Of a DNA stretch of 64,000 bases, positions 1 through 40,592 are shown one piece after another. The translations under genes and the position numbers were made by a program. The notes beneath the pieces were generated by a model. It saw only the letters and a program-made list of their open reading frames with translations. It was not told where the DNA came from and searched no databases. The stretch comes from Marsupella aquatica. Lineage: Eukaryota; Plantae; Marchantiophyta. Within the stretch, counting starts at the first letter, position 1. Every line of letters starts with the position of its first letter. The stretch is taken from assembly GCA_973895155.1 (NCBI GenBank), contig OZ316891.1:16705651-16769650 (forward strand), given 5' to 3'.

Positions 1-664
1 CAGCCCACCAAAGCAACAGACCGACGATTGGAGGCGTTCAACCCGTGGCCCGCATGATGCGTAAACAACTCCTTAAACATAAACACAGACCACGAGTCTT
101 TAGACACATTAACGGACACATACATAGAGATTACACCTTTTAATTTCCCTTATGCACCCTTTTTGCATACTATAAGGACTTACATTCAATAACTAGACCC
201 AAACTTATGTTATAGTAGTGGCACTCTTTCCATAATGGAAGCATGGTTTTAATGAGACCATACTACATTGGGCCAGACCATAGACCATAGGGTTAGCTTT
301 CCCCATCATATGGTTGGCTGTAACACACTCATCACCCAACCAAGGGGGAGTGTTATAAGTGATAAACCTAACCCCGGTAAACTAGACTTACCCTAGTGAA
401 TAGGGACAAGAGGTGGTTACATAACCACCACGCCCTATACTATATAGGGAGCCCCCATACTCCCAAATGGAATAGAAGGTAGTGAGTTTGTTGGCGCATG
501 AGATCTATGTCCCTGAATATTCTTAGCTATAAAGTGAGGAAAGAAGAAACTTTGCACAACTCTCCCTCCAGTTTGCCAGATCCCAAATGCTAGAACATAT
601 GTCAATATATATGTGGAAGGTGGGCATAGCCAATACATATAAATGGAGGGTGTGAAGGATAGTG

Positions 665-3600
665 TCAGTCCCCATCATCTGCAAGGACTGATGGCATTAA
701 GCCCTTCCCTTGCCGAGGGAAAATTGGAATGACAATGGACCATCCTCTCATGGTGTGCATCGGAACCATAATGCACTGATCCACCTGGCTAGGAAAAACT
801 ATGGTGTCACTAAACTCAGTCCCTGTGGGTGCAACTCGGGTTGTGTCCACGCGATAAAAACCACACTCATCCGCAACCATCGTAGCTCTCGCTGGAGGTG
901 ACATGATCGACTTGTGCCACCTCACCTCTAATACAGTGGTGACAAATGACCCAAAATGAACATCTGAATTGTCCACAACTGTCCCACAATAAGGAACCTC
1001 TACATCATCTACATCAGTCATCATGAAGATTCCAGAGTTACAAGTACTCTTCTTCATATGGTCCGTCCTCCAAGTCCGAAAGTGGTGCCCTGACTCATAC
1101 ATGTGTGTATGAGTCGTGGCCCACATCCCTGGCCCCCTAATGATGTTTTGTACATCAATGGGAATGGATGTAGGCCCATGCAGAGCCAAGAGCCTGTCCA
1201 TGCGCTCCAAAGCCCAGACACAAAAAATGATGCAATGCCACGACCTGTTTGCGCAACTCCCACTTGAAGCTCCAACCATGCACTGCCAAATATGTTGTCA
1301 CAAGATTGTTAGAGATTTGCAGCCTTCTCAAATCCAAATCCAAATCACAATCTCATACAATTTTAGAGTACCATACCTATACATCTCCCTCCAATCAGAC
1401 ATCTCCGGTCGATTGCCCAACACATAATTATGGATCTGTCGATGGAAGATGTCATCATCCAATGATTGCTTCTTGGCCGCACCCATCAATTGCAACCCAC
1501 CATTGTCATCATCTTGTGCCTCTTCCCAAGTCATGGGAGCCACGCTGTCCAAACTCCCTATCACCCCCAAGAATAGAAATTAAAGACACTCTGACATAAT
1601 GAACCCTGTTGCCATACTTCCCTCAGGGCGAGCTGGTTGACGCACCCAACCCTTGAGCACCTTCATATATTGCTCAATCCAATACATCCACCGGGCATGG
1701 ACTGGGCCCGCAATGGCAACTTTATCCACTAGGTGACATAGCAAGTGCATTTGCATGTCAAATAGTACATGTTGGGGGGAACACTCGCTCCAAATTGCAC
1801 ATCACTTGCGCCGTCCTCTCCCTCATCAAAGGAATGTCAGACTCCTTGATCTCCTTGCCACATACCCACCTACGAGGCACTCAAAAACATTCCAGGAATA
1901 AATATCTCAACCCAACCAATTGTGGGCTAAGATGGTTACCAATTCAATGCCTAAGCTTATTGATCTCCCTCTACCTAAGATATTCCTAATAACGTCGTTC
2001 TTTAAGACGTTCTGAAAGGTGGGTTCCTAGACGACGTTCTTTACGTCGTATGTGACGTAGTATTGTGATATTACCTAGTCAAGAGAGACGTAAATTATTA
2101 AGAGACAACGTATCTTTTACTAGAATGTCGTTTGAGACACCATAAATTTATGTTCCCATAACACCACAAAATCAAACTCTAAGATAATTCCAACCTGAAA
2201 ATGGAGCACAACTCGTACACTATGAGTCGGAGTAGGCGGCGCTCTCTAGAATCATCGCAACAACACAACACTGTAGGGAGCACATGCTGTATCAACTTGT
2301 GATAATCATGGGACTTCAACCCTATCGGGGGGATGTACTCATTCCTCGTTGTGCACCCACGGAATCCAGCTCCGTAATGGCTTGGGAACTTCATCTCACA
2401 AATCATCCCATTCACATCCTTCAGAATGTCTCGAGGCAAAATCCAAGGGGCTGGTGGTGTCACCCCATTACGTGTTGTCCAAGAAAGAGAATCAACTTGT
2501 TAGGGTTTGGGGTTTCAGGCAATTAATTGCATAATAATACACAATATCCTGGGAAATTCTTACAAATCCAGGGCTGATGTTTTCTCATGTACCTGATATC
2601 CAACAGCTCTTCACAACTCCTACATTTTTTGCATCCACTCGAACTCCACGAGTATCATTCTCACCATACATGTACTTCACCAAATTCTTTGCGACCACTT
2701 CAATGTGCATGGGGTCCAGTAGCCACCGGATCTTGAGCATCTGCTTGCACAACATGGTAATAAAGTGGAAAACTCTAGCATTCTGAGAGTTGATGAAAAA
2801 AACTATACACAATGATAGGCTTATTGTACCTACCCTCCAATAAGGCAAGTCCCACAATGCTGATCGTCGGTTTACTCCACAATCTTTGGGTTTGAGCAGC
2901 TTAGCCTCCACCATCTCTGCCATTTGAATTTGAGCTTTTGTTGAAGGCACATTAGGACATGGTCTCAACTCAGTCTGTGCCCAATGTCTTGTGTTCCATC
3001 GCATGGGGTCATCCATTGATAATCTCATCGTGCTGCCCTCATATGTGGTTTTGTGCAATAGTACTGAGTACCTCCCATGCAACTCAGGGCCACATGAAGG
3101 GCAACCTGAGTAACCAGCCACCTTCAAGCCTGATATTGTGCCCATGCCTGCCAAAGAAACCCCGTCATATTTCCGCAATAAAAGAAGCCAAATGTTCTAC
3201 ATAAAGTGATTTAGCACAATATAATTACATTTTGGTTGCTTTTCAAATTACCTGGCCCATCAGTGGTGCAATGGGTGATCATGACTCTCATGTTGAATGT
3301 CCTCCCATTGTCCAGTGCACGGGGGACATCTATTGTTGGGGCCCCATTTTCCCACAAGTCATGTAGCTCTTCATAAGCTGGGGCCAAGCAAACATCTGGA
3401 TTCTTGCAAGCCTCGGGACCGGGAATGATAGCTAGGAGGAGAACATGACCCTTTTTCATCGCCAACCATGGAGGGATGTTTTGATTTATCAAAAGAACTG
3501 GCCACATGGACTTTGGCTTCCGTCGCTACTTGTATGGGTTTACCCCATCTATTGCCAACCCCAATCAAACGTTCCATGGCTCTGCCGCAAACTTTGGCCA

Positions 3601-3757
3601 TGTGGCATCAATGTGCTTCCATGCTGGACTATCTTGGTGATATCGCATTATCCCTGTTGGGGATTTGGTCTTGGCATGCCAAGTCTGTAGGGAGGATAGG
3701 TGTCTTCGCCAGTACAGATGCTGCAATCGGGGTGTGATTGGAAAATACCTCAGTACC
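665..3757 (-). pseudogene. CACTA transposase (TnpD/Transposase_21, DUF4218- and DUF4216-like), downstream exons; frameshifted
   Basis: Motifs LRYFPITPRLQHLY, DSPAWKHID, WPVLLINQNIPPW, LLDPMHIE, GLKSHDYHKLIQH and HLVDKVAIAGPVHARWMYWIEQYMKVLKGWVRQPARPEGSMA (~1600-1760), separated by GT-AG introns. Confidence 0.9.
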
Positions 3758-3804
3758 TGAATGGAAGACAACCATGAGGAATAATTCATCGTTAACATAA
3801 AAAA

Positions 3805-3928
3805 TACGTTCACCAGAACTATGTTCACCAGAACTACGTTCCCCAAACATATACATTGTTCAAGATGACGTATTAACTATATGTTGACCATAACTACGTT
3901 CCCTAAATATATACGTTGTTCAGGACGA
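3805..3928. repeat. ~60-bp intronic minisatellite, left part; continues at 15283-15345
   Basis: Unit gatgacgtattaactatatgttgaccataactacgttccctaaatatatacgttgttca occurs at 3864-3922 and again, nearly identical, at 15286-15344. Confidence 0.85.
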
Positions 3929-4162
3929 GGGGAATTTACAAACGACAGCAAACAGATAACAGTAACAGCAAACAGTTACTGTTATCAGCTAAAAGAAACT
4001 GTTACCAATGAACAGTGTTTGGGTAGCAGTGAACACTGATCATGAAAAAAGTGGACTAAAGATGCGTTTCAAACTACTGGTATAGAAATGAATACGATCA
4101 AATTCGCATGAAAGGAAATTGGACTAGACGGAATCATGTATTTTACAACAAATAAAACCGTT

Positions 4163-5048
4163 TCACAATTGAGATAAACAAAATCCGAGACCAATATATG
4201 TCAAAATGCACAGGGGAAAAATAAAACTGCCATATACAATCGCAAAGTACATAACACGTTCGGCGCAGGTCCAAAAAATGCCCATATAAGTTACAACCTG
4301 TAGGCCTAGAAATCTGATATACAGAAGCCACGGTAGACCCCGGCTGAGGATTTCCAGTAAAACAAAAGCAGTGTTGGGCGCTAGCCAACAACTGCAGGAA
4401 AAACTACGGAATTCCTGAAGACGACATCCGGGAAAAATCCTAACAACTAAGCCGAGGGCGACTCCATCCTGAAACATCGAAAGAGCTTAAGCAGCGCTCG
4501 GCTCTAGCTTAAAGTGATCACCAAACTGAACAATGTGATGCCGTTCTTCATGAAAAACCGGAGGAACAAGCAATAAGTGATTGCATCTAGCTTTCAGAGT
4601 TGCAATCATCCTCCAATCCTGCCGCTTCTCTCCTCCGATTTTTCTTGAATCCAAGACCACGCAATCGAATGTATCTCTCAGAAGGACCCCAATGCACTGC
4701 CCTCGTATAACCTTCATTGGGAATGTTACTGTCCTCAAAGTCAACTCGCCCAAACATTTCTTGAACTTTCCTATCGATTGGCAGTACACCATCAATAGGA
4801 ACAGCCTGATGAGACGAGAACGTGCTTGCAAATGGGAGCGGAGGAGAATCGACGATCCATGGGATGTTCTTTTCTCCAGGACTAATAGCTTCATCATACG
4901 GTAGAGCGTGACGGTTCCGAAAAGTAGAGGTTTCAGTTTCCTCAGTCTCCATCCGTGACTTAAAAGAACTGAAATGGCTCTCTTCCGGACGCACACGAGA
5001 AGGGAGGAACGTTGCCTCCCAATCCATGAGCTCACCGTTTGTCTCCAT
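4163..5048 (-). pseudogene. Possible third, degenerate cargo ORF of unknown function in the MULE
   Basis: Overlapping minus-strand ORFs 4587-5240, 4487-5035 and 4163-4477 can be joined across a frameshift and a stop. No domain recognised. Confidence 0.35.
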
Positions 5049-5299
5049 GTTTAATGAATCCAATCTAGTGGCAACTTCCCCTCTGAAAAAATGCAAAAAT
5101 TGTCTGCAAAAGGCCCGCAAAGGTTCGAAAATGGTCGTGGGTCCAAAAGATCTTGTCCGGGAGGAATGTCTCCCTCGAAACACCCGAAATGTATCTCCAG
5201 AAAAGGGGCCGCAACCGGGCGTCTGTCCCAAAATAGTCACCTGTCCAAAAACTTGTCGTCCGTGACAAGTGTCATCCTTGAAAACCGTCGTTTAGGGTT

Positions 5300-5420
5300 T
5301 GATCCTAAAATGTCGTCTGAGAGAGATGCCGCCAACAAGAGATCCTAAAATATCGTGCGAAAAAGCTGTCAACAAGAGATCCGAATGTCATCCAAGAGAT
5401 CCGAAAATGTCGTCCGAATA
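5300..5420. repeat. Short tandem repeat (aagagatccKaaaatRtcgt-like units)
   Basis: gatcctaaaatgtcgtc / gatcctaaaatatcgtg / gatccgaatgtcatcc / gatccgaaaatgtcgtcc in tandem. Confidence 0.7.
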
Positions 5421-5748
5421 TAGCCGATGTGGGTATCTTTGGAAAACTAACGGACCTAAATGAAATGGCCGTTGGTATTCGAAACGTCTATTATACTATG
5501 TATTCACTACTATTTGTCTCATTATGATGACCGTTGGTAGGACACGACAAAGACCAAACGGCCGTGTTACACAAAGAAGAGCTGGAAATATTTACTTTAC
5601 GAATCACCATTTGGCGAGCGCCTGGCGCTTGTAAAAACACAAGGAATCAGACCTTAATTTATCAGGAGTCAATGAGAAGATTTGAATACAACTTGGTACT
5701 AGCGCCAGGCGCTGGTAAAAAATTACTCCCTAAACTCCTCAATACGTG

Positions 5749-8700
5749 TCACAATTCTGCAGATTCTGATTCGGAACCAGAATCTGAACTCTCGGATTTG
5801 TCCGTGGACATAGCCTCATCATCTATGTACTGGCTGCGGGAGAAGTCATCAACATAAGGATGTTTCATGAACTTCCTGTCAACACCCCTTCTTAACCGAA
5901 GACCTTTGTTTTCCCAGCAAAGCGTCCTTGTACCCTAGGCTTTCCTTGCGGCTTTCTCTGCATAGGAGGGAAGAACAAAAGGTTTTTCTGGTGTTTCTAT
6001 GTTGTGTCTAGCAACCCTCCTTCGCAGTTTGAAACGTCTCCTTGCATTCCACTCTGACCTGATCAAACAAAATCCAGCTAGTTAGGAGCCTTTCTCCAAA
6101 ACAACACAAAAATGTTATAAATTGACGGGAATGGAGAAAGAAGCTTACGAGTTTATGAACATTACTCGGAAGAGTCATCACTATCGGTTTCATCAGGAGA
6201 TCAACGAGGTTCTTCCTTTTCCTCCTCCGAGTCCCTTGTACCTTGTTCATCTCCATCTCCACCTTCACTGGACTCATCATCAGAATCAAAATTGAGTACC
6301 TACCAAAGCTTATCTCGCTTCTTTCTGTCGGCAATAGGAACAGGTGGAGGTAAAACCGCAATCTCTTTGGGAGACAACAAATCCATGAAAACCTTCGAAG
6401 TGGTTTCAATAAATTCTTTTCTATGTTCTATCCCGAGCACAAACCTCCCGGAGAAGTCTCCAGCAATGAAGGAGCTTCCAGCCCCAGCGGTCCAATCCAT
6501 AAAAATATCACGAGGTCGGGTGACAAGCTTTATGACAGATTGCATAAACCCAACAGACAGGCGAGCATTTCCAGAAAATTCCATTTGCGGGAATGGATCG
6601 AATTTGAGAGAAGGGAGTCCGATCAAATTGGTGACCGAGGGGTCCTCACTAATGGAGAGTGGACGGAATTTAGGGTCTTTGGGAATTTTGCATTTCCCAT
6701 TAATTCGACCAAATATGTCCAGCCTGAGGGTAAACATCTGCGGAAAGCAATCCCAAGTGTCAGTTGGCAACTCTAGGTTAAACGAGTTATATTTCAAAAT
6801 GCGACATTGTTAAGAGTACATAATTACATGACGGTCTGTCTTTGCCGCGTACATCGGGACAGACATTACAACATTATGCGTGCATATGCACTGAAATTTT
6901 CTCGATTCTTGACAGGCAGCAATGACTTGAGACATGGGATCGTACTCCCCATTGTGTAGAATTGCTAGGAATCCATCATCTGATAGAAATGGATCCATGG
7001 ACTTGAAAAAAGATCTAGCCATGGAGTGATCTGGAGTGTTCCATTTAGGAACCTTCTTATCTATGATCGTTGGTTTGAACCCGGTCGGTAGGTAAATGAA
7101 ACCGGCATCCACTCCAAACGATCTTTCTTTTCCTCCCAGCACAACACCCTTCTCTTTATATCCCGACTTAACGAGATCCTTCCCCCACTGCTCCACATTA
7201 CTAACCCAATCAGGTTTTTCCCCCTTGTTGAAAGTCGAGTCAAAAAATTTGGACATGCTTGTCTCAACCATGGCATGATGAGACACTCTAGTTTTGAAGT
7301 TTCCAACTTCACGTTGGACACCGGATGCTGCAACACTCTCCCTTGAAGAAGGTCCACCTTGGATAGCTCGCTTTCGTTTCTTCTTGGTACTTGTGGCGTC
7401 GACCGGAACTATTACTTTCCCCTTGTCGACAGGAGTAATGGGGTCCGATCAGGCTCCGGTGTTTGCCTCAGAAACTTCAGGTGTAGCATCCACTTTAGTA
7501 TCTCCTGTTCCCGCTATATTAGACTTCCTCCCTCCTAAATTATCAATAGGTCCTAGTTAGAACAAGTAAATCCGGAGTATTGAAACAAGCTAGCGCCAGG
7601 CGCTAACCAAATAAAAATCACTTAGGTCTCAACAAAGGCCTAAGAATCTAGAAAGAAATGTGAATTCGAATGACAGTTCTACCCAGCGCCAGGCGCTGGC
7701 CAAACCACGGAACATTATACTCACTTTTCCTCCCAGATTTTGTTGACTCGCTTGGTGCTGCTAACTCCGCTTTTGCTTTCACTTGAGGTTTTCGACTTCA
7801 GTCCACATGAACAATAGTCGTTTCACAGATACTTTGCAAGTCTATCACAGACTTGTCTACATCGTCTATCAGGCCCTGCTTCATGTCCGACACAATTTTT
7901 GCTGGTATGTGGGACTTTGAAAGCTTGTGGAATGCATCTTTCTCCCTTTGATCAAAAGGAGAATCCCATCTATCTGTATCTAGATACCATGGGCAGTGAG
8001 TTCTCTCCCATTATGTCATAGGTCTCGGAGTAAATATGCCCTCCGCTGGGTACATGGAGTACAAATCAGCTATGGCGTCATCCTCACTTATTGTAATCCA
8101 CTTCATGAAAGCTGCAGGATATGCCCAGAAGTAATTAGGTTTGGTTACCTCCATGTGCATGTAGAACCTGTAAAGATACCTTTTAGCCCGCTTCTGGTTT
8201 TTCTGGGTGTAGTCTTCTTTGTCTGGATACTTTGAAGGCCACATCGTGTGAAAGAACTTACTCTTCACAGAATCACCATATCTCTTGAATTCATTTGTAA
8301 CAAACTGAATGAGATCATCAAACGAACCACAATTCCACTCTTCTAATCTAGTTGCGGGCATCGTCTACTCTACTTCACGCAGACATGAATGTAACATGTC
8401 GACAGCAATTCCCTCTACACTATTCCAAGTGATCCAAGTATGACACCATTGTTTGACTGGGTCGTCGTTAACACTTGCCGGGTGGAAAAACTGTCTCCAC
8501 AGCTCAGGATTGCAATCTGCCACAAGTAGGGTGCTTTCCAACTTTGGGTCTAGGGCAGAAACAGCAGTGAACAATCGGGTGCGGTCCATTGTACATACGA
8601 CGGCGTCAGGCTTCTTCTCTCTCTTGTTTCCTCTGTGACAGCATACATTTCTGCACATGTACTAAGAAAATCTTCAATTTAAGACTTAACAAGGGCGTAA

Positions 8701-9954
8701 TTTTTGAGGACTTCACTGCACAGTCTTTGGTTGCGTCCTTCATCATGGCCGCATGGCGTTTGGACATCTCGCCCACCGACCAGGGACTCCCTTGAGCCTC
8801 GGCTGCCTCCATGTCAAGCTTGAATTAGTGAGAATATGACTTTATCTTATTCTCACATAAAATGTAAACAAGAGGTTCCTGTGGCATCTTCTTTGTATAC
8901 CATGACCCCTTCCGAATGCTCTCAAACTTCTTGAAATTAGCTGGATCAATCAGTTTACTGTAATACTCAAGGTCATGCGCCAGAATTTGTTTGATTCTAT
9001 CTGCATCGAGAATCCAGGATGGCTCAACAACGGCTTGGCCAAGCCTACACAAAGAGATGCAGCGAGTTAGAGTCGAAGTACAATTTATGTATAACCAGCG
9101 TCGAGCGCTCTTAAATAGAACACTCGCAAGATTCAAAGAAGGTACCTGAAAAGAACGAGAACTTACTAATTCACGGTGTGCATAGCTATCTCGATTTCAA
9201 TAACAGATCCCTTGTCTCCCTTAAATATTGTGCAGAGCACTCGAGGATGGTATTTTGGATTGTCAAGATTCTCCTCGGTAACAAGTGTCCATGACTACAG
9301 CCTGTGATTTCCATCAAAGACAGAGAACATCTTATCCTTCAGCACGAGAAAATTTGGATCGGCCTCGCATTCTGCCTCAAACTTCTCGTTCTCCAATTGC
9401 CAAATTGGATCCCATGATTGACGAATTTCCTGGGTATAGGTCAGAACAATTCCATTCTCATCCGTTGGCTGCACATAGAAACGCATTCCTATGGAGGAAT
9501 TGTAACCCATACTGCGAAACGAGTCTTTCAGCTTCTCGATGGAAGAGCTATCTTTCTGCAAAGTACGAACCACCTCCATGTGAACCAATCGGCATAGAGG
9601 GATTCGAGGCGGCTCCTTGTCAAATCCACGAGAATCCTTTCCAAAACACATGACATGTTTTGAGATGAGATCAGTCTCCAGGAGTGCGCAGACCGAAATA
9701 TTTTGGATCGCAATCGTGTCAAGGTTCTCCATCTTTCTACGTAGAGATTTAGGAACCAAAACAACGCTAACAGAAGTAGGAGGCAGCAGCTTTGTGGAAC
9801 GAGTTACACGACATGTATAAACTGAAGCAGTAAACGAAGACTGCGAGGATTCAGAATAAGCTTGCTCTTGGTCAGGAGCAGCACTATACCCTCTGGATGA
9901 AGAGGGGAATACCTCCATCATCTTCCTTCCAGAAGCGTACGAACTATCGTACAA
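5749..9954 (-). pseudogene. Multi-exon ParB/Srx-like domain + beta-class N4/N6 DNA methyltransferase-like (PF01555-like) protein; several premature stops
   Basis: N-terminus IPLCRLVHMEVVR...IEKLKDSF...FSVFDGNHRL*SW. C-terminal part VDAGFIYLPTG (motif IV position), FLSDDGFLAIL, FMQSVIKLVTRPRDIFMDWTAGAGSSFIAGDFSGRFVLGIE (motifs X-I-II), then an acidic/basic tail. Approximate introns 9045-9166, 7554-7724, 6738-6827 and 6059-6165. Confidence 0.75.
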
Positions 9955-10192
9955 TGAAATTATGGAACTCTAATCAACTCTCAACGTGTAATATATTCTA
10001 GAAGGAGGGTGGAGTTCAACGGAACTCTTCGATTAAAGCGAGAAGCTCATAAGTTTGGCGGATTCCAACGTATGTATGCAGAGAACTTAATTAGCAAAAT
10101 CAAGCGATAGAAGAAGCATAACACACACGGAACTCATAAGTTACCGTTAAATGTTACCGTTATGACCGTTTTCTTCCCTCACTCGGAATACT

Positions 10193-10603
10193 AGTGCCGG
10201 GCACTATTATAAACAAGTTCCCGTGAAGTAGATAATTTGGATGATTGTCATGGCAGCGCCCGGCGCTAGTAAACATAACAGCTATAGAATAGGTTTGAAA
10301 TGGTGTCTCCAGTAAATAAATTTTGTGAAAACAACCCCATATTTGAAGAAATGTTTAATGTTTTAATGGTTTTTGGGAAACATTACTTGCATCCTATACT
10401 AGCGCCCGGCGCTAGTGATAACGGGTATTTTTCATCCATAGTTTTAAAATAATTCACATTTTCATTGATCATTTAAATCAAATTATTCTATAGTATTGAT
10501 GGATATCTGGAGGGTTTTTCGTATACTAGCGCCTGGCGCTAGTATGAAATATCGAGATTTGGGGCATATTATGTTTGAGATATTTTAGTTAGCGCCAGGC
10601 GCT
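10193..10603. promoter_or_regulatory. Cluster of five AGCGCCNGGCGCT palindromes in the divergent intergenic region
   Basis: Copies start at 10193 (AGTGCCGGGCACT), 10255, 10401, 10528 and 10591. The 10528 copy extends to the 23-bp ATACTAGCGCCTGGCGCTAGTAT. Regulatory role is inferred. Confidence 0.65.
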
Positions 10604-10881
10604 ACTCAAATTGTTCCAACTATACAATATCTTAGAGTCTGTTAAAGATTTTTGTGGTGTCTTTTTTGGCATTATGTACGTGTCTGACATCCGGACTTAT
10701 CGGGGAAAAACAACAAAATTCATTTATGGCGCCAACGGATCCTATATCGACTATGTTTTATGTCTTACACAAATGCATATGTTAACGTGAAGTTCCCATG
10801 TTCGACTGATATAAGCTCCATATTACCATAGACTTTTCTTCCTCGAAACATTACAGTCCTCGTTATTTGTTTTCGATTGCA

Positions 10882-13800
10882 ATGTCTCGGTCCATCGTTC
10901 TATCCCGATTCGGGACTAGGGATATTGTGACCATCCCCGTCCCTGTGGAAGACACGTACAAGCAGGTCCGGGAGAGATACCTTTGCGGTAGATTTGATTT
11001 GAAGATGAATGATATTGAGGCCATTCTTCGAGAGCTTGAAACCAGTGATGACATCAAAGATGCAGCAACATTCAATGTGGATGATGCTGAATGGTTTTGG
11101 CATCTATACGCGGGGATTTCGTACTCACTTCGAGTAAGACACCATGAAGGACCGTCCAGTGTCCCCCAAGATCCATTTGATGTTGTTGAGATTTCTTCTA
11201 GTGAAGATGGGGATCACACTCCAAGTCCTACGTTGAAAATGAAAGTCCTGCAATGTGCTGTCGTTAAAGGTGAGACTCCAGGAAGCTCCAACCAGTTGGA
11301 GGTCGTGTATCGGTGCAGTGCAATGGATACGTTACTCAAATCCACTGGTCATAGCGAGTTATCGAGGTTCATATCAGCGGGTGATTTCAGACATGAGCAA
11401 GTCTCCTGTCTGCCAACTAAGTATAATAGGAACGTCGTGTTTGAATTGCCACCAATTGACAAGATGCTCTCTAAAGGCTCTAGGCTTAGGGACATGGACC
11501 GTGCCAAAGATTGCTACATTTGGACACGCATATTTCCAACTACGGCGAACGTCCAGCCAAAAAACTTTTGGCAATTTGGTAAGGTTACCTGTACGGGATT
11601 CATTGAATGTCGAAACAAGTCCTGCGAGTACTTCCAAAGGAAGAAGAAGGCAAATGCTAAGGCATGGCAAGGTACTCCAAAGCTTAGTGGTCAGTATGTT
11701 GTCGGATCTTTTATCAAAGAGGGCGGTGTTGTGTGTCATTATTGTGATCAGATTCCTTTTTGTGTCAAGTATTGCCTTGCCCATTTGTTCTATATGTACC
11801 CGCAAGTATTACTTGATGCGGAAACATGTAGTCATATGTCCCGCCTGGCGATTCATATAGGTGAGCATAACCATCCAGGTAGAAAAACCTTATGTAGGAG
11901 TGCGGAGAAGATGGTTGAGGATTTAATTAAAAAAATCATGAAGCCAATCCTCTGGCAAAACCAGTTGGGATCTTGAATTCTGCTACAGGGTCCATAGTGA
12001 AAGCTCTCTGCGAACATGTTGACGACATAGTCGATATCGAAGAAACTGAAATATGGAAGTCTTTGATGGTACTTTCCACTCCCCAAAAGTTTGCATCTCT
12101 TTGTCGGAGCGTTAGGATAGACCAAAAGGGTCGGGGTGAACTTGATTTTCTCTCGCAAATGCAAAAGAAGATTAACCTGTTGTTTCTCCAGAGGTATTTT
12201 CTCCCGGGTCAGGGAATTCAAGAGGACAGGCCTCACATCTTTAAATTGACCACAAAGGATCACGGTTCCGGTGTGGATCTTTTGAGACAGATGCAACCTG
12301 GTGGAAGACTCGAAGGAGCCTGGGTCAGTTTTGATGTGATGCAGCGTATCACAACCGATTGGTTTACTTTTAGCGCGCATGTCTACGACCATAACTTCCG
12401 TGCACTTTGTACAATTTTCACATGCGAGTTGAAAGGTGAAGACACTTAGTCTTTCGAAAAGGCTTGGAGAGTTATGATTGAGGTTTGCAAGGAGAATGGA
12501 TTACATGAGGTTGTCATCCAAGGGTTTATGGCGGACAATGCACAAGCTGGATGGAATGTTGTGCGGAATGTTTTTTTCGGTGGACACCCAGACCTGGAGA
12601 GGGAGCGCTCTGATGCATTTCACTTTTATCAATCTTTCCATCGGCATTCCAAGGAAGGAGTACTCGAAGAATGTCAATCGGAACATCGAAGACCTTGGGA
12701 GAAACTAAGAAACGCTCCAACGTTTGTGGTAGCCTATCGCGTGTCCCGAGAGATTGTGGTTTGGTGGCAATCAGGAAATTGTGTCCCTGGAAAGCTCATG
12801 ATGCTACAAAGCTGGATATCCTGGTGGGTTGTTCGATGGCGCCAATGGGGAAATTTTATTCGAGTGGTATGACATCCATCTCCTCTCTTGTCTTTCATTT
12901 CCATCAACTTTATTAGCGCCAGGCGCTCGTATGATTTGCTCGTATTTGAGTCCAACATGTCCATAAAGTTCCAGAATCATACTTGCAATTGTATTTCACG
13001 TATGTTATAAATACTTGTCGGTGTCAGCGCCAGGCGCTGGTAATACAATGCTAGTACTGATTATTGCATTTGGACTATGGCAGAGCAAAAGCGCAGAAGA
13101 AGGTGCCTTGATTCCGAACTGTACAGGGTCAGAATCAAGGCATGCGTCTATGAAAGCTTGGGCTACAAAGAAAAAAGTTGGACTTTTTTAAGCATGCAAA
13201 GTGGACCAAAACCGAGCCCTATCTCAAGTTGCGGGATACAGTGCATATCAAAAAGGGTTGAACAGAGGAAAGGGACCGACTATATGGGAATTGGCGTTCC
13301 GTTCCGCCGATCAAGCAGGTTCGCCGAGGTTATTTGAAGATGTGACCAACATGCTTCTTTCAAACGCGACGGACTTCGATTTGGAAAGAAGTACTCCCCT
13401 TAACAGAGATATCGTGACCAAGTCAATGAAGAGAAAGGGACATGCAACTGGGACTGCCTCTCCACAAGACTCCCACCGGTGACACCGTTCTCATAACCAC
13501 ACCAAATACTCGTGGTTTGAAAAGGAAAAACCTAAACAGAACTGACTTTGCCTCCATTCCCTCAAATTCTAATGATCCTGTGACAAGAGTGGTGAATCTC
13601 TCTGGTATGGACACACCAGATGGTGATACTGATTCACTGGACAATACCCCTCAAACAACCCGTACAACAAGATCCACAAAACCTCCGCTCAGTGCACTAG
13701 CCTCACTTCAGAATCCACTTCCACGGACGATTGTGCTAGAAAAGGATGTCCCTCTGGGGCAGTGGCAGTTGCGACGGACGTCCAAGTATGGAGCAGGTCC

Positions 13801-14614
13801 CTAGTGTAATGGGACACTCAATGGGAGTTCTGATCGCGATGAGTGTCGAAATCGTATCAAGAAGGTTGGCTCCCATTCGTCTGACGGTGTTGTTGGAATT
13901 GTCGTGAAGGGCCATCGTCTCTTCAGGGGCGAACCGATCTCCGGAATGATTTGGTTCTGCCCAAACCAAACCTGTTATAAGGGTTGTCCGCGTCGTGGTG
14001 TTCATCAGCTTCCTCCTCTTCCTAAAATTTTGCCTGTTCTGAATGGTACGAGCCTATCTCCTTCTGAAATCACGTTCCTCGAAGAGCAAGGACTTGTCTT
14101 AGCCCAAACAACAGGATTGAGTCGATCTGCGCCATCTTCGTTTGACCTCAGGATAAATGTGAACGTGTTCCCAGAAATGATAAGGTTTTTGGAGCCAAAT
14201 GTCCGGCTGGGTAGTCGGAATGAGAGGAACTCAAGACCTCGGTCTAATCTCATTGTGGGTCACACTAAGCGAATGGAGTCTGCACGACAAGAAGAGATGA
14301 GTTTGGATGGGGAATGGAATGTTTGGACTAGAAATGCTTTTGGAAAACAATTTCAAATTCGAACCCATGAGAACTTTCGATCACCAAACACGTACTTCGT
14401 GCAAATCTGTATCTTCCCTGCTTGCTCATGTGAGGACTTCTTCCTACGACATTCGCGTGGCAAGTCGTACATGCCTTGTAAACATCTATACTGGGTGTAC
14501 ATAAATGTTTTCAAACTTGAGGTTGAGGAGTCGACTCTTTGTAGCCAACCAATTTTGACTGTGGGCGAAGTCAGGCTTGTCTTGGAGAGGCAGAACTTGA
14601 ATGGCTTACAATAG
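10882..14614 (+). pseudogene. MULE-like DDE transposase with N-terminal GCM/WRKY-like zinc-binding domain and C-terminal SWIM finger; frameshift and stops
   Basis: CTGFIECRNKSC...CHYC...C...IHIGEHNHP; VSFDVMQR; FMADNAQAGWNVVRNVF; DAFHFYQS; intron ~12868-13083; PNCTGSESRHASM...GKGP; SWIM CSCEDF...PCKH. Frameshift in the A-run near 11930 and TAG at 12447. Confidence 0.8.
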
Positions 14615-15542
14615 GGGTCGAAACTTCCGTATAGGTCGTTCAATATAACGGATAGTCACTATTTTGTCTTTACCCAATGGATATGTTACTTGTTTTATTC
14701 AAAGATTTTTGGTTAGCGTCGGGCGCTGCTTCCAAAAATCTTATTTTTCTTGCTTTTTTATGTATGCGTGTAGTGTAAGCATTACAACATGTTTTATTGA
14801 AAATGTGTAAGTTGATATCATTCTGTTTTTATCTTTCAAGCCGCATTTATTCAATTATTCTGAAATAAATCGTTAGGTGGTGTTTTGTCATTTGTTTGTC
14901 ACGGTACTCGGTCCATTTAAGTGAACTCATTTTGATTGAGTTCATTTGGACACTACTCTTCACTTGTTTTGTGGTGGGTCCCACCCTAAGGTTCACTTTT
15001 TAGCTTGGACGAATAGTGATATTTGAATGAATGTTTCATTGAGTATAGTCCCCATACCATGTTATTTATATACCCTAAATAATTATTTGTTTTAAACCTA
15101 ATTCACTAAAGAAAAATTATGTGATTAGCGTAGTTTTTCATTCGGACCAAAGGGCTATGGTTGATGCAAAATTGGGAACAGGGAATCGCTTACTGGTAAC
15201 AGTTAAATTTGACTGTTAACAGCAAAAAAATTCCTGGTAACAGGTTTTCTGTTTTCTGTTTTCTATCATGGCTATCATACCCTAGGATGACGTATTAACT
15301 CTATGTTGACCAAAACTACGTTCCCTAAACATATACGTTGTTCAAGAAGACATTTAAAAAATGTACGTCATCTGCAAAGACGTAAAATTCAAGTGGGAGT
15401 CGTTTAGGGTGTTTACATCGTGTTGTAAGACGTACATATCATGAGGGCAATGTTAACGGACACAAAACGCCGTAAGGTACGACAAAAAATAGTAAGATGG
15501 GAGGTTGTGTATGTGGACATGTGACAGAGAGGATGTCATTAC

Positions 15543-16345
15543 CTTCTCAGCAATCTTGTCTCCAATGGTATCAGGACGATACCGTGGAAGGCCACATCGC
15601 TCAATCAGGCAATGGGTGTGGTCCAAGTATGTCCCTCTATACAAGATGCACCCAGCAGGGCACATATGTATAGTCTCTAAAGCCAATCCGATAGAAGATA
15701 ACAACTTCTTAGCCTCTCTCACACAACCTGGAAGGTTGTTAGGTTGGGGCAAGATTTTGTTGTGGAACAACGCAAAGAGTGCATCTGTATGGACATCTGA
15801 TCCATTGAAAACCCCCTGTAAATTTAACATCAAGAGTGTGGCTCCCAACCTGCATTTGCATTGAAAACCACAAAGAAACCACCTTTTTAATTAGTTCCAG
15901 GCATGCCATTGAGTATGGTCCAATTGGGAACTTACGGGTTTATGCACACCCTTAAGCAACATTACAATAGAAAAACTATAATGGAATGATTGGATTGTAC
16001 CGTGAGGTCGGGGAACCCTGGAATAGCGGAGTCCTGGATTTTGTTTCCAGTTGGTCCCAATCATCTTCGTCTAGTTCCATGATAGGAGGGCCATCCTCAG
16101 GTACATGAGGTCCAAAGTGGATGTGCACAAGGTGCGCAAAAGCATCCTCTACATCTTCATCAAAATTGCCATCATGTGCATCATGGTACTCATCCACATC
16201 CTTGTCCACATCCTCGTCCTCATGCACATGATCACTCTCAACATCTTTGTCGTCAGAAAAAGATAATGTGGCTCGCATGTGGAATGCACGGGCTAACTCC
16301 GTCATCATCGATGGATGAGGTGTAGGTGTTATATTTGGACCATCC
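15543..16345 (-). pseudogene. CACTA transposase upstream exons
   Basis: ILPQPNNLPGCVREAKKLLSSIGLALETIHMCPAGCILY...CGLPRY...IAEK joins in frame to VLRYFP at 3757. The acidic exon 16000-16345 ends SRTPLFQGSPTSR. Confidence 0.85.
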
Positions 16346-16488
16346 TATGCAAGTAATCAATATTAGATAACGTAATCTCCAAATTAGACAATGTGTTCCC
16401 AATACTGCATGGGGTAATGAAGGTCAAAGAATGCAATATAAGTCTCACTCCGTGTAATGAATAAGTGATCAATGAACATATACAATCT

Positions 16489-17972
16489 TCAATGCCAATC
16501 ATAGTCTACAAAAATCTCATCCCCAGCTCGAATGGTGTGGGTGGATGTGTCACGATGTAGTGACTGCATCCCACGGGCAAACGAGGGTGACTCTGGTCAT
16601 GGTACTCGTGCCACTCAGCATTGGGGCGAAACCCCAAACGCCGACACCCCACTGTGCTATTGATATAACCCGCCAAGTTTCCAGTACGAGGTGGGTAACC
16701 ATCCATCTAAGTATACCTAGGGTCCAACTTTAGTGACATGCCATACCGACCAAAGGTTGGGCATTGGCAAGACAAGATACGCCATCTTTGTCGCGAATAC
16801 TTGGCCCATAAAATGCAATCAACTCAGGTAGGTCCTCAGGTGCACAACCTTCCGGCACCACAATATCCACAAGTGCAAATAATCCAAGACCTACGTCTGG
16901 TCCCAATGTAGATGGGAGGAGGACCCATGGCCTATCCCAAACTACAATAGGCTCCCGAACAAGCAGGACCATAGGGAGGCCAAACTGGGTTGGGAATGAG
17001 TCCTTTATGATGTCCAAGGCTCTCCCTCTTAACTCTCTTGGTGCTCGGGAAAAAGAGGCATCAAGAAAAGGACAGTGTGGCGGCACCATCCTAGGGGTAC
17101 GAGACGTAATGGACCAAGGTCTAGTGGTGACCTCTACTCCCCTCTCAATAGGGTGATTGCGTATGACCCTCCTCCTATCAAAAACATGGTCTATTGCCCT
17201 AAAAGTGGCATGGAGTGCTAATGGGGGAACTAGTGCTGTGAGCGCGTGACGTGCAACCTGTCTCATGTGGTCCAAGGGCGGAGAGACAACACACAAAATC
17301 TGTTTCACATGCGAACAGGAGAACTTCAGAAATCAGGGAAGAAACCTTTCCAACTAAACACTCAAGAAACACAAGAAACCCAAACATGTCTGCAATAAAA
17401 ATAAGGACTTAATGAATTGAATAGTGTCAATAAAGGTTTATAAATTACCTGATGTGTCGGGGTACGTAACGGCCGTGGAGGCCTAAATGGCTAAGGACAG
17501 TGGTCCTCTTGTGGGAGACGACGCCCTTGCATCTACTACATGGGCAGGGCATCTTTTGGACTGGGCCAATCCCTTGAAGGGCAGCCATGGCCTCTCCAAA
17601 CCTGTCCTCATCCTCCGGCATGGGTGATCGGTGTTGTAATGTCTGGTCATCAGAGGGAGACCTGGACCGGCGGTGGCGGTGGGAGTGTCGATGGGAGCTC
17701 CTATGTCTTTGTCGCTCCCGATGGTGTCAATGTCAATGATCCCTAGATCGGTACTCCCTATCTGGCGACTGATCCCAACTCCTCTCAGACGAATGGTGCC
17801 TGCTCCTATCAGATGATAAGTCCCTCCTCTCGCGTGAGTGGTATCTCGACCTCACAGGTGAGTGCTCCCTCCTCCTCTCCCTCCCCCTATCATGAGAACG
17901 GTACTTGACTTGGTGCTGTGTACCTCCATCATAGCGGTCATCAGATGACCACTCCGATGAATACGAGGCCAT
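16489..17972 (-). pseudogene. SET-domain protein gene inside the CACTA element, with an RS/RE-rich first exon; frameshifted
   Basis: PSTLGPDVGLGLFALVDI...FYG; YLDGYPPRTGNLAGYINS...PNAEW; after a frameshift, THTIRAGDEIFVDYDW (~16490-16540). Probable intron ~17390-17448. Confidence 0.75.
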
Positions 17973-19393
17973 GGTCTGCAATAGTACACAGTCACACATA
18001 TACACACAAACTTGCAAACTCAGCCTTGGAAATGGAACATCGGGACCACTACAGTACTAAATAATTTACATCAAGCAATACAATGTACTTTTACTTTACA
18101 TTGCCCAAAACACAGAAGACGACGTAACTCTTAAACCCTACGTCATATACCCTACCCCAAACGACGTAAACCCTAAACCCTATATTTTAACGATGTACAT
18201 CACATTGTTAAAACTCAAACGTCGTCTCTTACAACGTTACACTAAGAGATCAATTAGGGTAACATAGCCTTGAACGACGTTAGATTACAGAGAACGGCGG
18301 AAACACATGGTTGCAAACTCTGTCGCATTCTATTTGGAAAATATCGGGGCATAGTGTCGAATGTGAGTCATTCGACCATTCCGCACACACCTCACCCCAT
18401 ATCTAGTTGTAGCAAGGTGATAAAGAAATAAATGACTATTTACTCCTTAACAACTCGATTTCGTTCCCGTTAGGAGTGGATAAGATCAAAAAGACTGAAT
18501 TAACACAATTTGAGAAGTTTACACCAACATTCTTAGGTTGGAGAGATTTCTAATGATCTCCTTAATATAAGTGTTTAACCACAAACTCAAGTGGGTAATC
18601 TTTAGGATTCACAGTGCAATAATAAAGACTAGAATTAACAAAGATTGAAACTAGAGAGAGAGTAGATAGAAAGTTTCAATATGCAAAGGAATTGAATTTC
18701 CGACCATCACCACTCCTTCAATAAGGATTATGGCCTAATTTAAGATTCGGAAATCAACATTTTCTATGCTTTTTGATTTCTCGTAGCAACTCTCATCCAT
18801 CTATTGAATTTAGAAGACATGAACGTAAATCAACCCGAGACACTTTTCTGGTCCTGTTGAGGACGGTACTAGGATACTCGAATTGGCTTACTTCTCCTAC
18901 AATCCTTAAGATTGCTTGTTTGAGTTTTGAGCAAATGCCAATTTCCTCTTTGGTGAATCTTCCATATGTATTGGTCACAAATCTCATTGATCTTCCAATA
19001 TCATTATAGGCACACTCTAGTATTCATTGAACATTTCACAACAACTCAAGGGTTGCTAAACTTCTTCCTTTTACTTAACCATGGTAAAAAGAAGGGGAGA
19101 AAAGGCATAGATTTCTCCAAAATAAAAATGGGGAAATCAAATGTATCTCTCTCCTTTGTTGACTTTGGGTTCTCCTCCGTTTGTACTAAAAGTGGAGATT
19201 ATGAAAAGACATGCCTCTTCAAAACCCAAGTCTAAAGAAATATGTAAATAAAAGTGAACTATCCTAGTCAAAAATGGAGTAGAGTCCCCAATGGATACAT
19301 CAACAAAATACTGGAGTCTACTTACTCATATAGTAATCTATATAGCTATTTCTAAGTCTAAACTAATGTGACTCTAACTCTCTAAATATAACT

Positions 19394-32726: not shown

Positions 32727-33240
32727 ACACCAACTACACTTGATGTGACTGCGGGTCGGACCATTTTACGTGTGCATAAAGTGCTATCTTTTGGTGTGTA
32801 GATGTTGGAAGGGCGTGATGGTATGGTTTGGAAGGATCATGTGCGCAACTGTGCACCATGGCATCTTCCAAACATTGATGGTACAATGGATCCAAGCTTA
32901 GCACATGTTCGTGCTAGCTTGAAGTGTATTTTGTGTGGATCTGCTCAGGGAGCAACTACTATGTTGATTTGTGATAAGTGTTCTAGAGGATGGCACATGT
33001 CATGTTTGACACCATCATTGCAGGTGATTCCTAGTGGATCATGGTTGTGTCCTCAGTGTCGGTGAAGCCAACTAGTTATCCTTTGTGTTCTCTTGGTAGA
33101 TATGGATTGTAGAGAGGTGATTGATGGGGCTCACTTGCATCCGGCCTCCTGATCTTCACACCTAAAAAGGTGTATATCAACCTTGTAGAACTCATGGCTA
33201 GCTAGAGTTAGGGGACCTTACTCCCAACTACGGGGGCGAT

Positions 33241-33337
33241 TGTGGGTTTTGGACATGTATGGACATGAGTTCCACTTGTATTCCATTTTCTTGTGTTTGT
33301 GATGTGGCAGTGTGACTATGTCTGGATGTATGTGACA
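33241..33337 (+). repeat. Candidate short 3' LTR of the PHD-Gypsy element
   Basis: G-rich tract (cgggggcgat) followed by TGTGGG...TGTGACA. No 5' LTR is available in the window to confirm it. Confidence 0.3.
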
Positions 33338-33652
33338 AGCGATGAGCGTTTTCACAAGAAGAGATAAGATGTAGATTTCCTTTTAAGATAGTCTTGGAAA
33401 CAGAGAGTCATTGACATGCAAGAGCAAAGGAACTGGGGAGTCCAATCATCAACGAGTTGTTTTCCTTGCAATGGATAATCCAAGTTGCGAGGAAGCTGAC
33501 CTCTCATCCCAGATCGAGCATCCTCGATGAGACAAAAGTTAGAGAGGAACCCAAGGAAGAGTCCTTCCTCTCAACACTAGAAGTTTGTCCTCTATTTTTG
33601 GCAATGAGTCTTGAGAAACAGAAACTTTTGTGATTCAAAATTGACATTTCCT

Positions 33653-37325: not shown

Positions 37326-38049
37326 TTGACATTTCCTTCCCGCCAATGAAGGAAAAAATCCAGGGATTTGAAAGTTTGGGTGTCGCCGAGCAGTTGAATT
37401 CAAACGGATAGTATGGTAAGATAATCCATGAAAAGAGGAGGGGTTTTGGGGGGCTGCCTAATCTTTGTGGATGCCAAGAGAATTCATTAAGAATTCATGT
37501 CATGTGTTGAATGAATTGTCTTTTGAATTCAAGTTATCAGTTCATAGCTCAAAAGGTCATGTAGAGCTAGAGGAAATTTATCCTTGCATTCAGAGAGGAC
37601 TTCTCGATCGTCTAAGTATTGTTTTGCGGAATCTTTGCAGTAGCAATCTTGCAAATGGCAGAGAGGTTGCGATAAGTGGACGGAAGGAGGACAATCTTCT
37701 CTGTTGGTCTTGTCAAGTTGGATTGCGTCAAAATGTAATATGTGTGGTTAAAATGTGATGTTACTGATAGTCATTTTCAGGGTTGAAACGCATAGCTACA
37801 AGTCATCTAGACCCCATTCCTTGTCATTTTTTAAGGTAATTGGAAGCGTTGGCAGGGAATTGTTTTTCCTTAAATTGAGGTTCTTGTGGAAACGTGAAAG
37901 TCGACACTACAGTACCAAGTGCATCAACTCGATCTGGGAAGACATAGGTTTTTTGTCTTATTTTTGTGCAGATTCTTGTTAGCGCCTCGCGTAATTATTT
38001 TGGTATGACCATCTTTGTTGTGATATTGTTTAGCTTCTATGATCAGTTT

Positions 38050-39240
38050 TGCAGGTCATCACAACATGTCAAGAGTAAAAGAAATTCCAGTGTTTGTTCA
38101 CTCATAATGTGGTGATCCCTATGTATGGGGCCAAGTCCGATGTGCAGGTAATTTAACAACCAAAATTGGATTTTGGCTAGCACCCAACACTGTTAAGTTT
38201 ATCTTGACCTCACCTTATTTTTTTCATTGCAGGTTTTCACTATGCGCCTAGATTATTTTTTGCAAATCTTGTCAAAGGTCAAAAATCCAAAGGATCCTAA
38301 ATTCATACCACTTTCAAGAATTGAGGATCCCTCTATCACAAATCTGGTTGGACTTCCTTTTGCAAAGGTGGATACAAATCCTAAGCTTGAATTTGCTAGA
38401 AATGCCAGACTCCATCCAGGATTCATGCAGTCTTTGTTGGAGTTAATTACGTGCCCAAGTGATATTGTTTTGGATTGGGTTGTAAGTTCCGGGAGTACTT
38501 TTGTGGTAGGGGATTACTATGATCAATTTGTAATTGGAGTCAAGAATAGGATGGAGTTCCTTGAAAGGGCTTCAAAGATATTTTTGGAACTTCTCACTCC
38601 CAAAGTACTTGAATTGTCTGCTCCTCCTGGAAATGTGGTTGCAAAGAGGAAGAGAATCAAACTTAGATCAGTCCTCAATTTTGATTCAGACGATGAAGAG
38701 TATGCCGGTGAGGGGGAAGGACAAGAGGATCTCCACATTCCCATAGCACCGCAAACTGGAGAGGATCACAAATCTAATGAAGGGAGGGACAACGGAGACT
38801 CTTCTGAGTAATGCTTGTAAGCTTCCTGTCAAGCTCCCCCTCTCCGGAATTCACTCTTTGCTTTCACTTTTCCCATCCAGTTTTTCCTTTTTCAAAAATA
38901 CTGTGAGTTGACATACAAGACAAAATTCTCCTCCTCGGGTCAGACTTTAATCTATGACGGCATTTCCAACTCAGAAGGAAAGTTGCCAGAAGTTGTATTG
39001 GGACTCTAGAGAAACCATTTGTATTACCTTTGTATGCCAAGAATGCTGCCAGGAGAGTTGATAGTGTGCGTACACTCCAATAGGAGAATAAAGGTCTGAG
39101 ACCAAGGAGAGGTTTTGATAGGAAGTTTGTTAAAAACCCATATGTTGATGACATGTCGAAAGCAAATTTATTGATGACGAAGCAGAGTCCACCGACAGGT
39201 CTAAGTCAAGCGAGTCAAAGTTCTCAAATGAAGTTAGGTC
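38050..39240 (+). pseudogene. Partial paralog of the methyltransferase-like gene (3' exons), remnant of a second related element
   Basis: PMYGAKSDVQ|intron|VFTMRLDYF...FMQSLLELITCPSDIVLDWVVSSGSTFVVGDYYDQFVIGVK...LNFDSDDE...EKPFVLP...ENKGLR...DRKF..PYVDD, colinear with 5749-6900. Confidence 0.85.
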
Positions 39241-40592
39241 AGAATAGTAATTCAGGTTTTTACTATAATGGTGAAGTTATACTAGTGCCGGGGGCTACTG
39301 AAATGTCTTCTTTGAATTTCTTCTTGGAACGCTTATGTGTTTTGTACTTCAGCCGATATGTATAAAACTATTCTGTCAATTCATTTCATTTCATCCACTA
39401 TGATCAAGGTCATGACAGATTATTGACATTGAATCCAAGTGACATTCATTTTGTGTGTGGGATGTTCATAATGTTACCTTGGCAAATACAATAAAAATAA
39501 TGGCAATATTATAAATTAGAACATCTTTAGTGTCCACTGAGTTAAAAGCTGTTCGTGCTAATAAGAGGAGGCAGGGCAAACAAAAATTTGAATTAAGCTG
39601 GAGACTCATGGTGAATCTGGAGTGTCATTTTTAGTGCTTGCACATGGTACACAGTGAAGGGTTTATTCGGAAAGTACAGGATTCGAAACAAGAAGATGCT
39701 AGTCTTTTGCAAAGAGCCAATGCCATCGCGTCGGGACTTATAAGTGAGGGTGACTTACAAGTGAAGGGTACCCTTGCAACATGGAAGAGACTAACATATG
39801 GATTCATACAAATACAAAGAAAAAGTTTGAGGGTGTTCTGCCTACATCGGGAAAGTAAGGAAGAACAAGAAACATTTTCCTAAAGCAAATTCAATAATTA
39901 AATTTGAAAAATAGCACCGATTAGGAGGTGAGGTAGATTGTCCACAAGGGGACTCTAAAAAAAGGCTCCAAACCGATTATCGACTTTGGTACGAGCCACG
40001 TCAAGTCAATCTGGCGGTTGCATTGAAATAAACGTTGAGGAGAGCCCGATAGACAAGCAAGGGGGTGGTGTTGGATGAAGAAATAAACCTAGGTAGCGGT
40101 GGTAAGTGGGAACGCCACGGGGGAGTCTTTTTAGAGGAGTTTCTCGGGTTGGTACTGCATCTCCGGCACTGGGTCACCAGATGACGACGACGATCGGTGT
40201 GGGACAGACGAGGTCTAAACGAGAAGAGGAAAGAGAGCGAAGTGGGATCATGTGTTTGTGAAGTGTTGAGGACTGGAGTGTCCTGAAATTGTTGTTCGTT
40301 TGGATGCCTGTACGTGTGCCGGGAGCAGAATCTCTCCTGGATAGCCAACTGATTCATTCCTCGCCACCGAGGATTGATCGGCAAGAAGAGACGGAGGGGC
40401 GGACACTGCTTCGGGGCTGTTTGGAGACAGGTCATCGGCGCGAGTTTTTCGGAGGTGTGCAGGTGAAGTCCGCTTGTAGTTGTTGCGGTGGTGTTGCAGA
40501 GCAGCAGTTCGTGAGAAAGGTAATGGTATGGTGTTGAGATCGATCTTGCGGCGATAAGTGGATACAAAACGGGAAAGGGTGGGGTTGAACTT

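Follow-up and report, generated by a model that had tools for sequence, protein, structure and literature searches.

The DNA transposon described here, assigned to the Mutator-like elements (MULEs) as a divergent and decayed member, comes from the liverwort Marsupella aquatica and carries 15 short palindromes, all of them in its non-coding DNA. It occupies positions 3929..15282 (11,354 bp) of the window, which is the whole stretch of DNA that was analysed, 64,000 nucleotides of contig OZ316891.1 (assembly GCA_973895155.1, positions 16,705,651 to 16,769,650 of the forward strand). Besides a transposase gene, the element contains a divergently oriented accessory gene whose product is predicted to combine a ParB/Srx-fold domain with a methyltransferase-like domain. 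The palindromes are real and would constitute a new form of transposon self-targeting. The explanation put forward here, to which we give slightly less than an even chance, is that they are parS-like loading sites for the accessory protein and are used against silencing.

The 13-mer AGCGCCNGGCGCT is present in ten exact copies in the window, and an exact motif scan confirmed all ten positions listed in the original prediction, which had been made from the letters alone. One further match is found at one mismatch. These 11 matches compare with a mean of 0.05 in shuffled sequence, and none of 100 shuffles reached 11, so that the motif is enriched. Beside the exact copies, variant palindromes are present at 4370, 4493, 9097, 10193 and 14715. 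Four of these had been noticed before. The earlier list lacked the one at 4493, which has two mismatches, as well as two decayed sites located beyond the element, at 38179 and 39284. The copies are symmetric over 13-23 bp, the length also given earlier, with arms of 6-11 bp around one base.

According to the gene model of this analysis, 32% of the element is non-coding, and this portion contains all 15 palindromes, which lie in three introns, in the spacer that separates the two divergent genes, and in 3' regions. Two degenerate palindromes (4370 and 4493, within 4370..4505) lie 3' of a small candidate gene, ORF3, and a pair (5617 and 5701, within 5617..5713) lies just 3' of the accessory gene. 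Within this gene, a pair (7592 and 7685, within 7592..7697) is located in intron 7724-7553 and a variant (9097..9109) in intron 9166-9045; its two shorter introns have no palindrome. Five palindromes (the variant at 10193 and copies at 10255, 10401, 10528 and 10591, within 10193..10603) occupy the spacer between the two genes. The transposase intron 12867-13083 holds another pair (12915 and 13026, within 12915..13038), and a variant (14715..14727) is found 3' of the transposase gene. The pairs near 7.6 kb and 12.9-13.0 kb had been predicted to be intronic, and both indeed lie in GT-AG introns that can be spliced out without a frame change. From the element ends to the nearest palindrome, the distances are 441 and 555 bp.

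The palindromes have two-fold symmetry around a free central base, and no lone half-site hexamer was found inside the element. Read outward over the 30 half-sites, the consensus has a purine at +1 (26 half-sites), G at +2 (18) and a pyrimidine at +3 (29), and becomes A-rich beyond +3. The binomial probability of the pyrimidine at +3, a position picked after inspection, is 1e-8, and conservation that is stronger at +3 than at +2 would be typical of a protein-binding profile. More than about 8 bp away from the palindromes, the flanks are unrelated (mean identity 0.285 versus 0.26 for random sequence). The statement that the flanks differ is therefore correct at that distance but not for the nearest 3-8 bases, which share the consensus. 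When the spacers between sites were compared in 28 pairs, no pair aligned better than shuffled sequence. The palindrome thus looks like a dimer-binding site, as had been proposed over simple duplication, an interpretation supported by the lack of shared spacers and lone half-sites and by the recurrence of the half-site, with a changed spacer, in a diverged relative. Neighbouring palindromes are often 62-63, 84, 93, 127 or 146 bp apart, close to whole helical turns. Helical phasing was considered and not used as support: the p value of 0.011 at 10.5 bp (seven spacings) becomes 0.04-0.05 after a period scan, and spacings of 111 and 90 bp do not fit the phase.

Two relatives of the element also carry the site. 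The first is a relic of the 3' part of an accessory gene from a diverged subfamily (38046..39296, plus strand; 52% amino acid and about 66% nucleotide identity), 23 kb from the element, in which only accessory-gene sequence was seen (38046-39250). A matrix trained on the element gives two matches in the other 52,647 bp of the window, where 0.23 are expected, and both lie in non-coding DNA of the relic. The site at 39284 is located just past the stop codon and aligns with the palindrome at 5701. The match at 38179, with a weak score of 12.6, is probably another site and lies in an intron (38148-38232) in which the main element has none. A three-mismatch motif at 37981 may be a further decayed site. 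The relic is older than the element, heavily CpG-depleted and 1.4 kb upstream of a host gene. The second relative, L001, is a metagenome locus of 2,078 bp, with 62% identity in its best segment, and is the only one recovered out of 55 candidates. Its homologous transposase intron contains three palindromes with the same half-site and outward consensus and a spacer of 0 bp instead of 1. All six half-sites read AGCAAT, and CCNGG is absent from these sites. The middle site of L001 is embedded in a 60-bp near-perfect palindrome (1167-1236), whose arms contain GTTTCAC/GTGAAAC; we take this to resemble bacterial parS half-sites, possibly by chance. Since the half-site recurs in the relic and in L001, the site is characteristic of the family, undergoes turnover in place and differs from one subfamily to another. 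A palindrome scan of viral contigs gave five single sites without related genes, which were treated as chance.

The accessory gene (5750..9921, minus strand) would encode about 1,200 amino acids, with the ParB/Srx domain followed by a middle region, a basic linker, the methyltransferase-fold domain and an acidic and basic tail. It contains stops and frameshifts and is readable through three tested GT-AG introns with the frame unchanged; the intron calls rest on GT-AG sites, reading frame and homolog ends. Because stops and frameshifts remain, the ParB-methyltransferase fusion is a gene model and not a transcript. The first exon has eight relatives at 44-80% identity in which PxIPxCR, DGNHRL and E-x2-MH-x2-N are invariant; the latter two motifs are part of the predicted ParB/Srx-fold domain (9169..9711, minus strand). 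The Box II GxxR motif, here GNHR, is kept in 11 of 11 sequences. An AlphaFold model of the domain built on 11 sequences reached a pLDDT (predicted local distance difference test) of 82, and in a structure comparison against 48,161 chains all 11 matches with Z of at least 2 have the ParB/Srx fold. The best match is ParB 7bm8 (Z 7.5, root-mean-square deviation 2.9, 96 aligned residues), and ParB, Noc and KorB were the top matches in a second look (Z 6.7-7.5, deviation about 3, 91-100 aligned). The N-terminal domain is therefore predicted to adopt the ParB/Srx fold. In addition, the DGQHR model matches two relatives weakly (E 0.06 and 0.2).

No family match was obtained for the middle region. Relatives of the ParB domain were found neither in viral contigs (59 candidates) nor in GTDB genomes (8 candidates) nor in phage records (best E 4). 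Matches to calpain structures in the PDB and to the Pfam families TRAPP, Anthrax_toxA, NRN1 and DNA ligase (E 0.01-0.05, below cut-off) were taken as noise. The basic C-terminal region is kept between element (5750-6060) and relic (38935-39197), with about 63% amino acid identity over 59 residues, and is a candidate DNA-binding part of the protein.

The C-terminal half contains a domain like that of the beta-class N4C/N6A methyltransferases (6303..7150, minus strand; intron 6827-6738). Pfam N6_N4_Mtase, the sole Pfam family on pieces of the accessory protein, matches at E 4e-4 to 8e-4, below its curated cut-off, and the DpnA match (E 6e-4) covers the S-adenosylmethionine (SAM)-binding region. 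The stretch DWTAGAGSS ... LGIE, corresponding to SAM-binding motifs I-II, aligns with DpnA, CcrM and phage enzymes. The catalytic DPPY/SPPY motif is absent: [DNS]PP[YFW] occurs in no minus-strand frame of the accessory gene and not in the relative P0004. Both have YLPTG at the inferred catalytic place, about 35 residues before the motif VI stretch. The place of motif IV was derived from its spacing to the aligned motif VI, which is the same as that of DPPY in phage enzymes. Because YLPTG stands where [DNS]PP[YFW] would be expected, the methyltransferase fold is likely inactive. A single-sequence fold model of this part reached a pLDDT of 31. Homolog searches with it gave no longer protein among 3,416 candidates and one protein of near length among 1,910, and the best phage match (E 0.04) was limited to the SAM-binding part.

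The transposase gene (10883..14614, plus strand; intron 12867-13083), in this copy also broken by stops and frameshifts, codes for an N-terminal Cys/His-rich region, a D-D-(C/D)xxH core and a C-terminal SWIM-like motif, visible as a Cys/His pattern at its end. Among 1.84 billion proteins, 233 relatives were found at E <=0.001. Species were named for five of the 20 clusters looked up, and all were the liverworts Riccia sorocarpa or Calypogeia fissa. Viral contigs yielded no relative of the transposase (16 candidates). The Mutator/MULE superfamily has a DDE core with a C/DxxH motif. Both catalytic aspartates are present in 13 of 13 aligned proteins and C/DxxH in 12 of 13, while the catalytic glutamate was placed by eye only. 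Pfam MULE and SWIM gave no match on pieces of the window. The IS256 model matches P0180, a distant relative, with E 1e-4, and P0155 with E 0.15, and SWIM is above cut-off in three of eight distant relatives tested. The catalytic core, the IS256 and SWIM matches of a relative and the 8-bp target-site duplication together underlie the assignment to a divergent Mutator-like element. The distant relatives P0106, P0123, P0136 and P0180 have no Pfam MULE match, one of them having IS256 and SWIM, and as a side reading may represent a MULE clade that Pfam misses.

The target-site duplication consists of CAGGACGA on the left (8 bp, 3921..3928, plus strand) and TAGGATGA on the right (15283..15290, plus strand), which differs from the left copy by two C>T changes. 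When the element and one copy are taken out, the surrounding 60-bp host repeat is restored at 90% identity. Target-site duplications of 8-11 bp are described for MULEs (PMC6446971), and the 8 bp found here fit this range. The ends (GGG...CCC) are imperfect, with 62% identity over the terminal 40 nt, and long terminal inverted repeats are absent. This does not exclude membership of the MULEs, because non-TIR MULEs, which lack terminal inverted repeats, exist. Both ends are rich in AACAG/CTGTT repeats, with seven in about 100 bp on the left (3929..4030, plus strand) and seven in about 120 bp on the right (15160..15282, plus strand), compared with 1.5 per kb inside; these are likely transposase sites. 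CACTA transposase domains (Transposase_21, Transpos_assoc) occur on both sides, so the element was inserted into an older CACTA element. This decayed host element (window 1-3928 and 15283-18260) has 60-bp internal repeats.

In the explanation preferred here, the accessory protein would bind the palindromes as a dimer and thereby protect or activate the element. That the palindromes bind a dimer encoded by the element itself is quite probable, and given such binding, the accessory protein is somewhat more probable as the binder than the transposase. The purpose could be to shield the element from silencing by 5-methylcytosine (5mC) or to control the two divergent promoters. The ParB domain would bind a nucleoside triphosphate and the protein would spread outward from every site, which would allow 15 of them to cover 11 kb. 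VirB of Shigella is described as an anti-silencer of the ParB type that loads and slides (PMC10770331), and a few sites could act over such a distance because the ParB fold could do the same. The methyltransferase fold may bind or shield DNA without methylating it. This explanation is also favoured because the palindromes are restricted to non-coding DNA, as are the regions bound by VANC21, which are described as introns, intergenic and terminal non-coding DNA of VANDAL elements (PMC5735166). The window copy itself is broken, and neither protein is made intact any longer. CpG observed/expected is 0.69 in the element exons, compared with 0.39, 0.52 and 0.54 in the neighbouring CACTA element, long terminal repeat (LTR) retrotransposon and long interspersed nuclear element (LINE), 0.32 in the relic and 0.62 in host-gene exons. 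The higher CpG of the element fits a lineage long free of 5mC.

Several points weigh against this explanation. The fold match is middling (Z below 8) and all Foldseek E-values exceed 0.001, although no unrelated fold appears. The ParB/Srx fold is also found in enzymes that are not clamps, and its nucleotide preference is not readable from sequence. In the middle region, neither a helix-turn-helix nor any other DNA-binding domain was recognised. L001 shows the transposase only and is too short to link the palindromes to an accessory gene, and it is the single outside locus (one of 55) for comparing site and protein. No tandem array runs across the palindromes, while VANC targets are tandem, and the higher CpG of the element may reflect youth alone. 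The copy has also mutated regardless: its eight coding segments hold seven in-frame stops, compared with 138 codons that are one transition away from a stop, and C>T or G>A changes account for ten of the 12 mismatches seen across six variant sites. At a decay of roughly 4% for each C or G, some two thirds of the sites are expected to be exact and 10 of 15 are, so the sites decayed together with the genes, with no sign of present selection.

The main rival, although unlikely, is that the palindromes are internal sites for the N-terminal zinc-binding domain of the transposase, serving self-activation or synapsis, and that the accessory gene has another job. The MULE-derived FHY3/FAR1 proteins bind a GCGC-containing motif, and L001 links palindromes directly to a transposase only. 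In addition, a Mutator transposase has been described as able to activate and demethylate its own copies alone (10.64898/2026.08.24.746577). According to the same source, however, the AtMu1 transposase peaks at terminal repeats, and the ends of the present element have AACAG repeats of their own and lack the palindrome. The relic, moreover, keeps its sites beside accessory-gene sequence alone. For these reasons, binding by the accessory protein is preferred.

Less probable still is an active but non-canonical amino-methyltransferase function of the accessory protein, which would deposit N4-methylcytosine (4mC) or N6-methyladenine at or around the CCNGG/GCGC core, as a self mark that blocks 5mC. 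The N6_N4_Mtase match and the SAM-binding region resembling DpnA and CcrM are in line with this, as are reports that bacterial N4C enzymes recognise CCSGG (PMC8885841) and that 4mC enzymes are present in Marchantia (10.1101/2021.02.12.428880). However, the window gene and P0004 both have YLPTG in place of the catalytic motif, SPPY is described as needed for the activity of N4CMT (PMC8885841), and the L001 palindromes lack CCNGG. The hint at a methylation target that these core sequences gave in the original prediction loses weight, since the methyltransferase domain has no catalytic motif.

A host factor, such as a transcription factor, insulator or demethylase recruiter, could also bind the palindromes and be exploited by the element, for which the chance appears slim. 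A dimer-type site leaves the identity of the binder open, and the five palindromes crowd the divergent promoter region. On the other hand, no palindrome is located near the host gene or in other transposons across 52.6 kb, and a spacer that differs between relatives (1 versus 0 bp) would arise more easily if the binder evolves with the element. Slimmer again is the chance that the palindromes act as hairpins of RNA or single-stranded DNA, in splicing or as a small-RNA decoy, or are by-products of hairpin-mediated repair. The long palindrome of L001, whose intron folds at z -12, and the symmetry of some window palindromes over up to 23 bp would suit hairpins. Yet folding of the homologous intron in the window is not stronger than that of shuffled sequence (z -1.4), the window arms are short, and the exact sequence is kept and not pairing alone. 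Rfam gave no family at cut-off in the element, and its matches in L001 are look-alike hairpins that score far below cut-off. An origin of the palindromes as insertions or footprints of a very small independent miniature inverted-repeat transposable element, also raised in the original prediction as a refuting case, is largely refuted: TA dinucleotides at 2 bp flank four of the 15 palindromes, but no consistent target duplication accompanies the copies, their flanks show no similarity and no copy in the window lies outside the family.

The element is laid out like the VANDAL/VANC system but is not a member of it. As described for VANDAL, it is a Mutator-like element without long terminal repeats, with an accessory gene and a short motif in its non-coding DNA, and the motif varies between related families (PMC5735166). 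It is set apart because tandem repeats are absent and the protein is different. VANC motifs are described as non-palindromic, tandem-repeated words of 8-9 bp (PMC5735166), whereas dispersed palindromes of 13-19 bp with unrelated spacers are found here, and the accessory protein has no VANC family match, with ParB and methyltransferase folds instead. The ParB/parS, Noc, KorB and VirB/virS systems share with the element the ParB/Srx fold (predicted here), the GxxR motif and, as far as described, several palindromes on their own mobile element. Unlike these clamps, the accessory gene is a eukaryotic nuclear gene with introns, and has an insertion of about 50 amino acids between Box I and Box II and a fused methyltransferase fold; neither a helix-turn-helix was identified nor a ParA seen.

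The same domain pair is described for fusions of ParB with N6_N4 methyltransferases, which are common in phages (10.1101/2025.10.10.680097, PMC4738411). The accessory protein differs from these in being much longer, in lacking the catalytic motif and in its location in a plant DNA transposon; a phage fusion as the source of the gene is plausible. Algae and chytrids are described as having eukaryotic methyltransferases from phage ParB loci, and DIRS1 retrotransposons as having inactive ones (PMC4738411); the present element does not appear in the portion available of that account. A beta-class amino-methyltransferase fold is also known in eukaryotes from liverwort MpDN4MT1a/b and bdelloid N4CMT. 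As described, however, these are host genes with an intact (T)SPPY, TSPPY in MpDN4MT1 (10.1101/2021.02.12.428880; PMC8885841 for N4CMT), and by these descriptions they are distinct from the accessory protein, which is part of a transposon, has no such motif and has a ParB domain.

A lead towards fungi came from the Atlas, in which the ParB-like domain of P0168, a relative of window 9169-9921, is nearest to fungal DUF3723 clusters (179 shared features at a score of 0.95; 47% of members carry DUF3723); with a recognition of 1981, below the 2300 mark of the tool, this is a lead only. The Pfam DUF3723 model (PF12520) matched none of nine aligned members, and no literature linking DUF3723 with ParB was found. 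DUF3723 is described as conserved cargo of fungal Starships with its function stated to be unknown (10.1101/2021.12.13.472469, 10.1101/2025.02.28.640899). It is thus, as here, an accessory gene in a eukaryotic transposon, although Starships move by a tyrosine recombinase. The Atlas neighbours of P0168 also include unnamed cnidarian clusters (0.93). Together this hints that ParB-like proteins of transposons may form a wider family in eukaryotes. The most far-reaching version of the explanation is that a nucleotide-gated sliding clamp, derived from a phage-type ParB-methyltransferase fusion, uses parS-like sites in introns and spacers to keep a bryophyte element free of 5mC, acting like VirB on eukaryotic chromatin, with site and protein co-evolving and DUF3723 of Starships perhaps as kin; this version is considered doubtful.

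Other features of the window are less directly connected to the palindromes. ORF3 (4590..5100, minus strand) would encode about 150-170 amino acids and has no family match; in the region 4590-5600 it is preceded by degenerate repeats of 40-57 bp and by TTTAGGGTTT, which we take to be telobox-like. At 25387-29356 and 32802-36975, remnants of LTR-retrotransposon pol (RNase H, integrase) are present, together with a LINE that contains a PHD finger and a reverse-transcriptase ORF of 703 amino acids. The host gene at 40524-46849 encodes a MARCHF6/SUD1-like E3 ligase (RINGv, MARCHF6_C).

No description of the element was found in the literature searched, although an entry may exist in a repeat library or supplement. 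In a survey of the ParB fold from 2025, sulfiredoxin is the main eukaryotic representative, and transposons and plants are not mentioned in the available part of its text (10.1101/2025.10.10.680097). If true, a ParB fusion associated with DNA and encoded by a plant transposon would widen the known range of the fold. The puzzle posed for VANC is how one protein frees several kilobases of its own element with high specificity (PMC5735166), and a ParB-type load-and-slide protein with defined palindromes would offer a concrete mechanism for it. The DUF3723 lead, in turn, provides a hypothesis for the function of the Starship gene, and a short site together with one protein could serve as a tool for site-directed epigenetic control.

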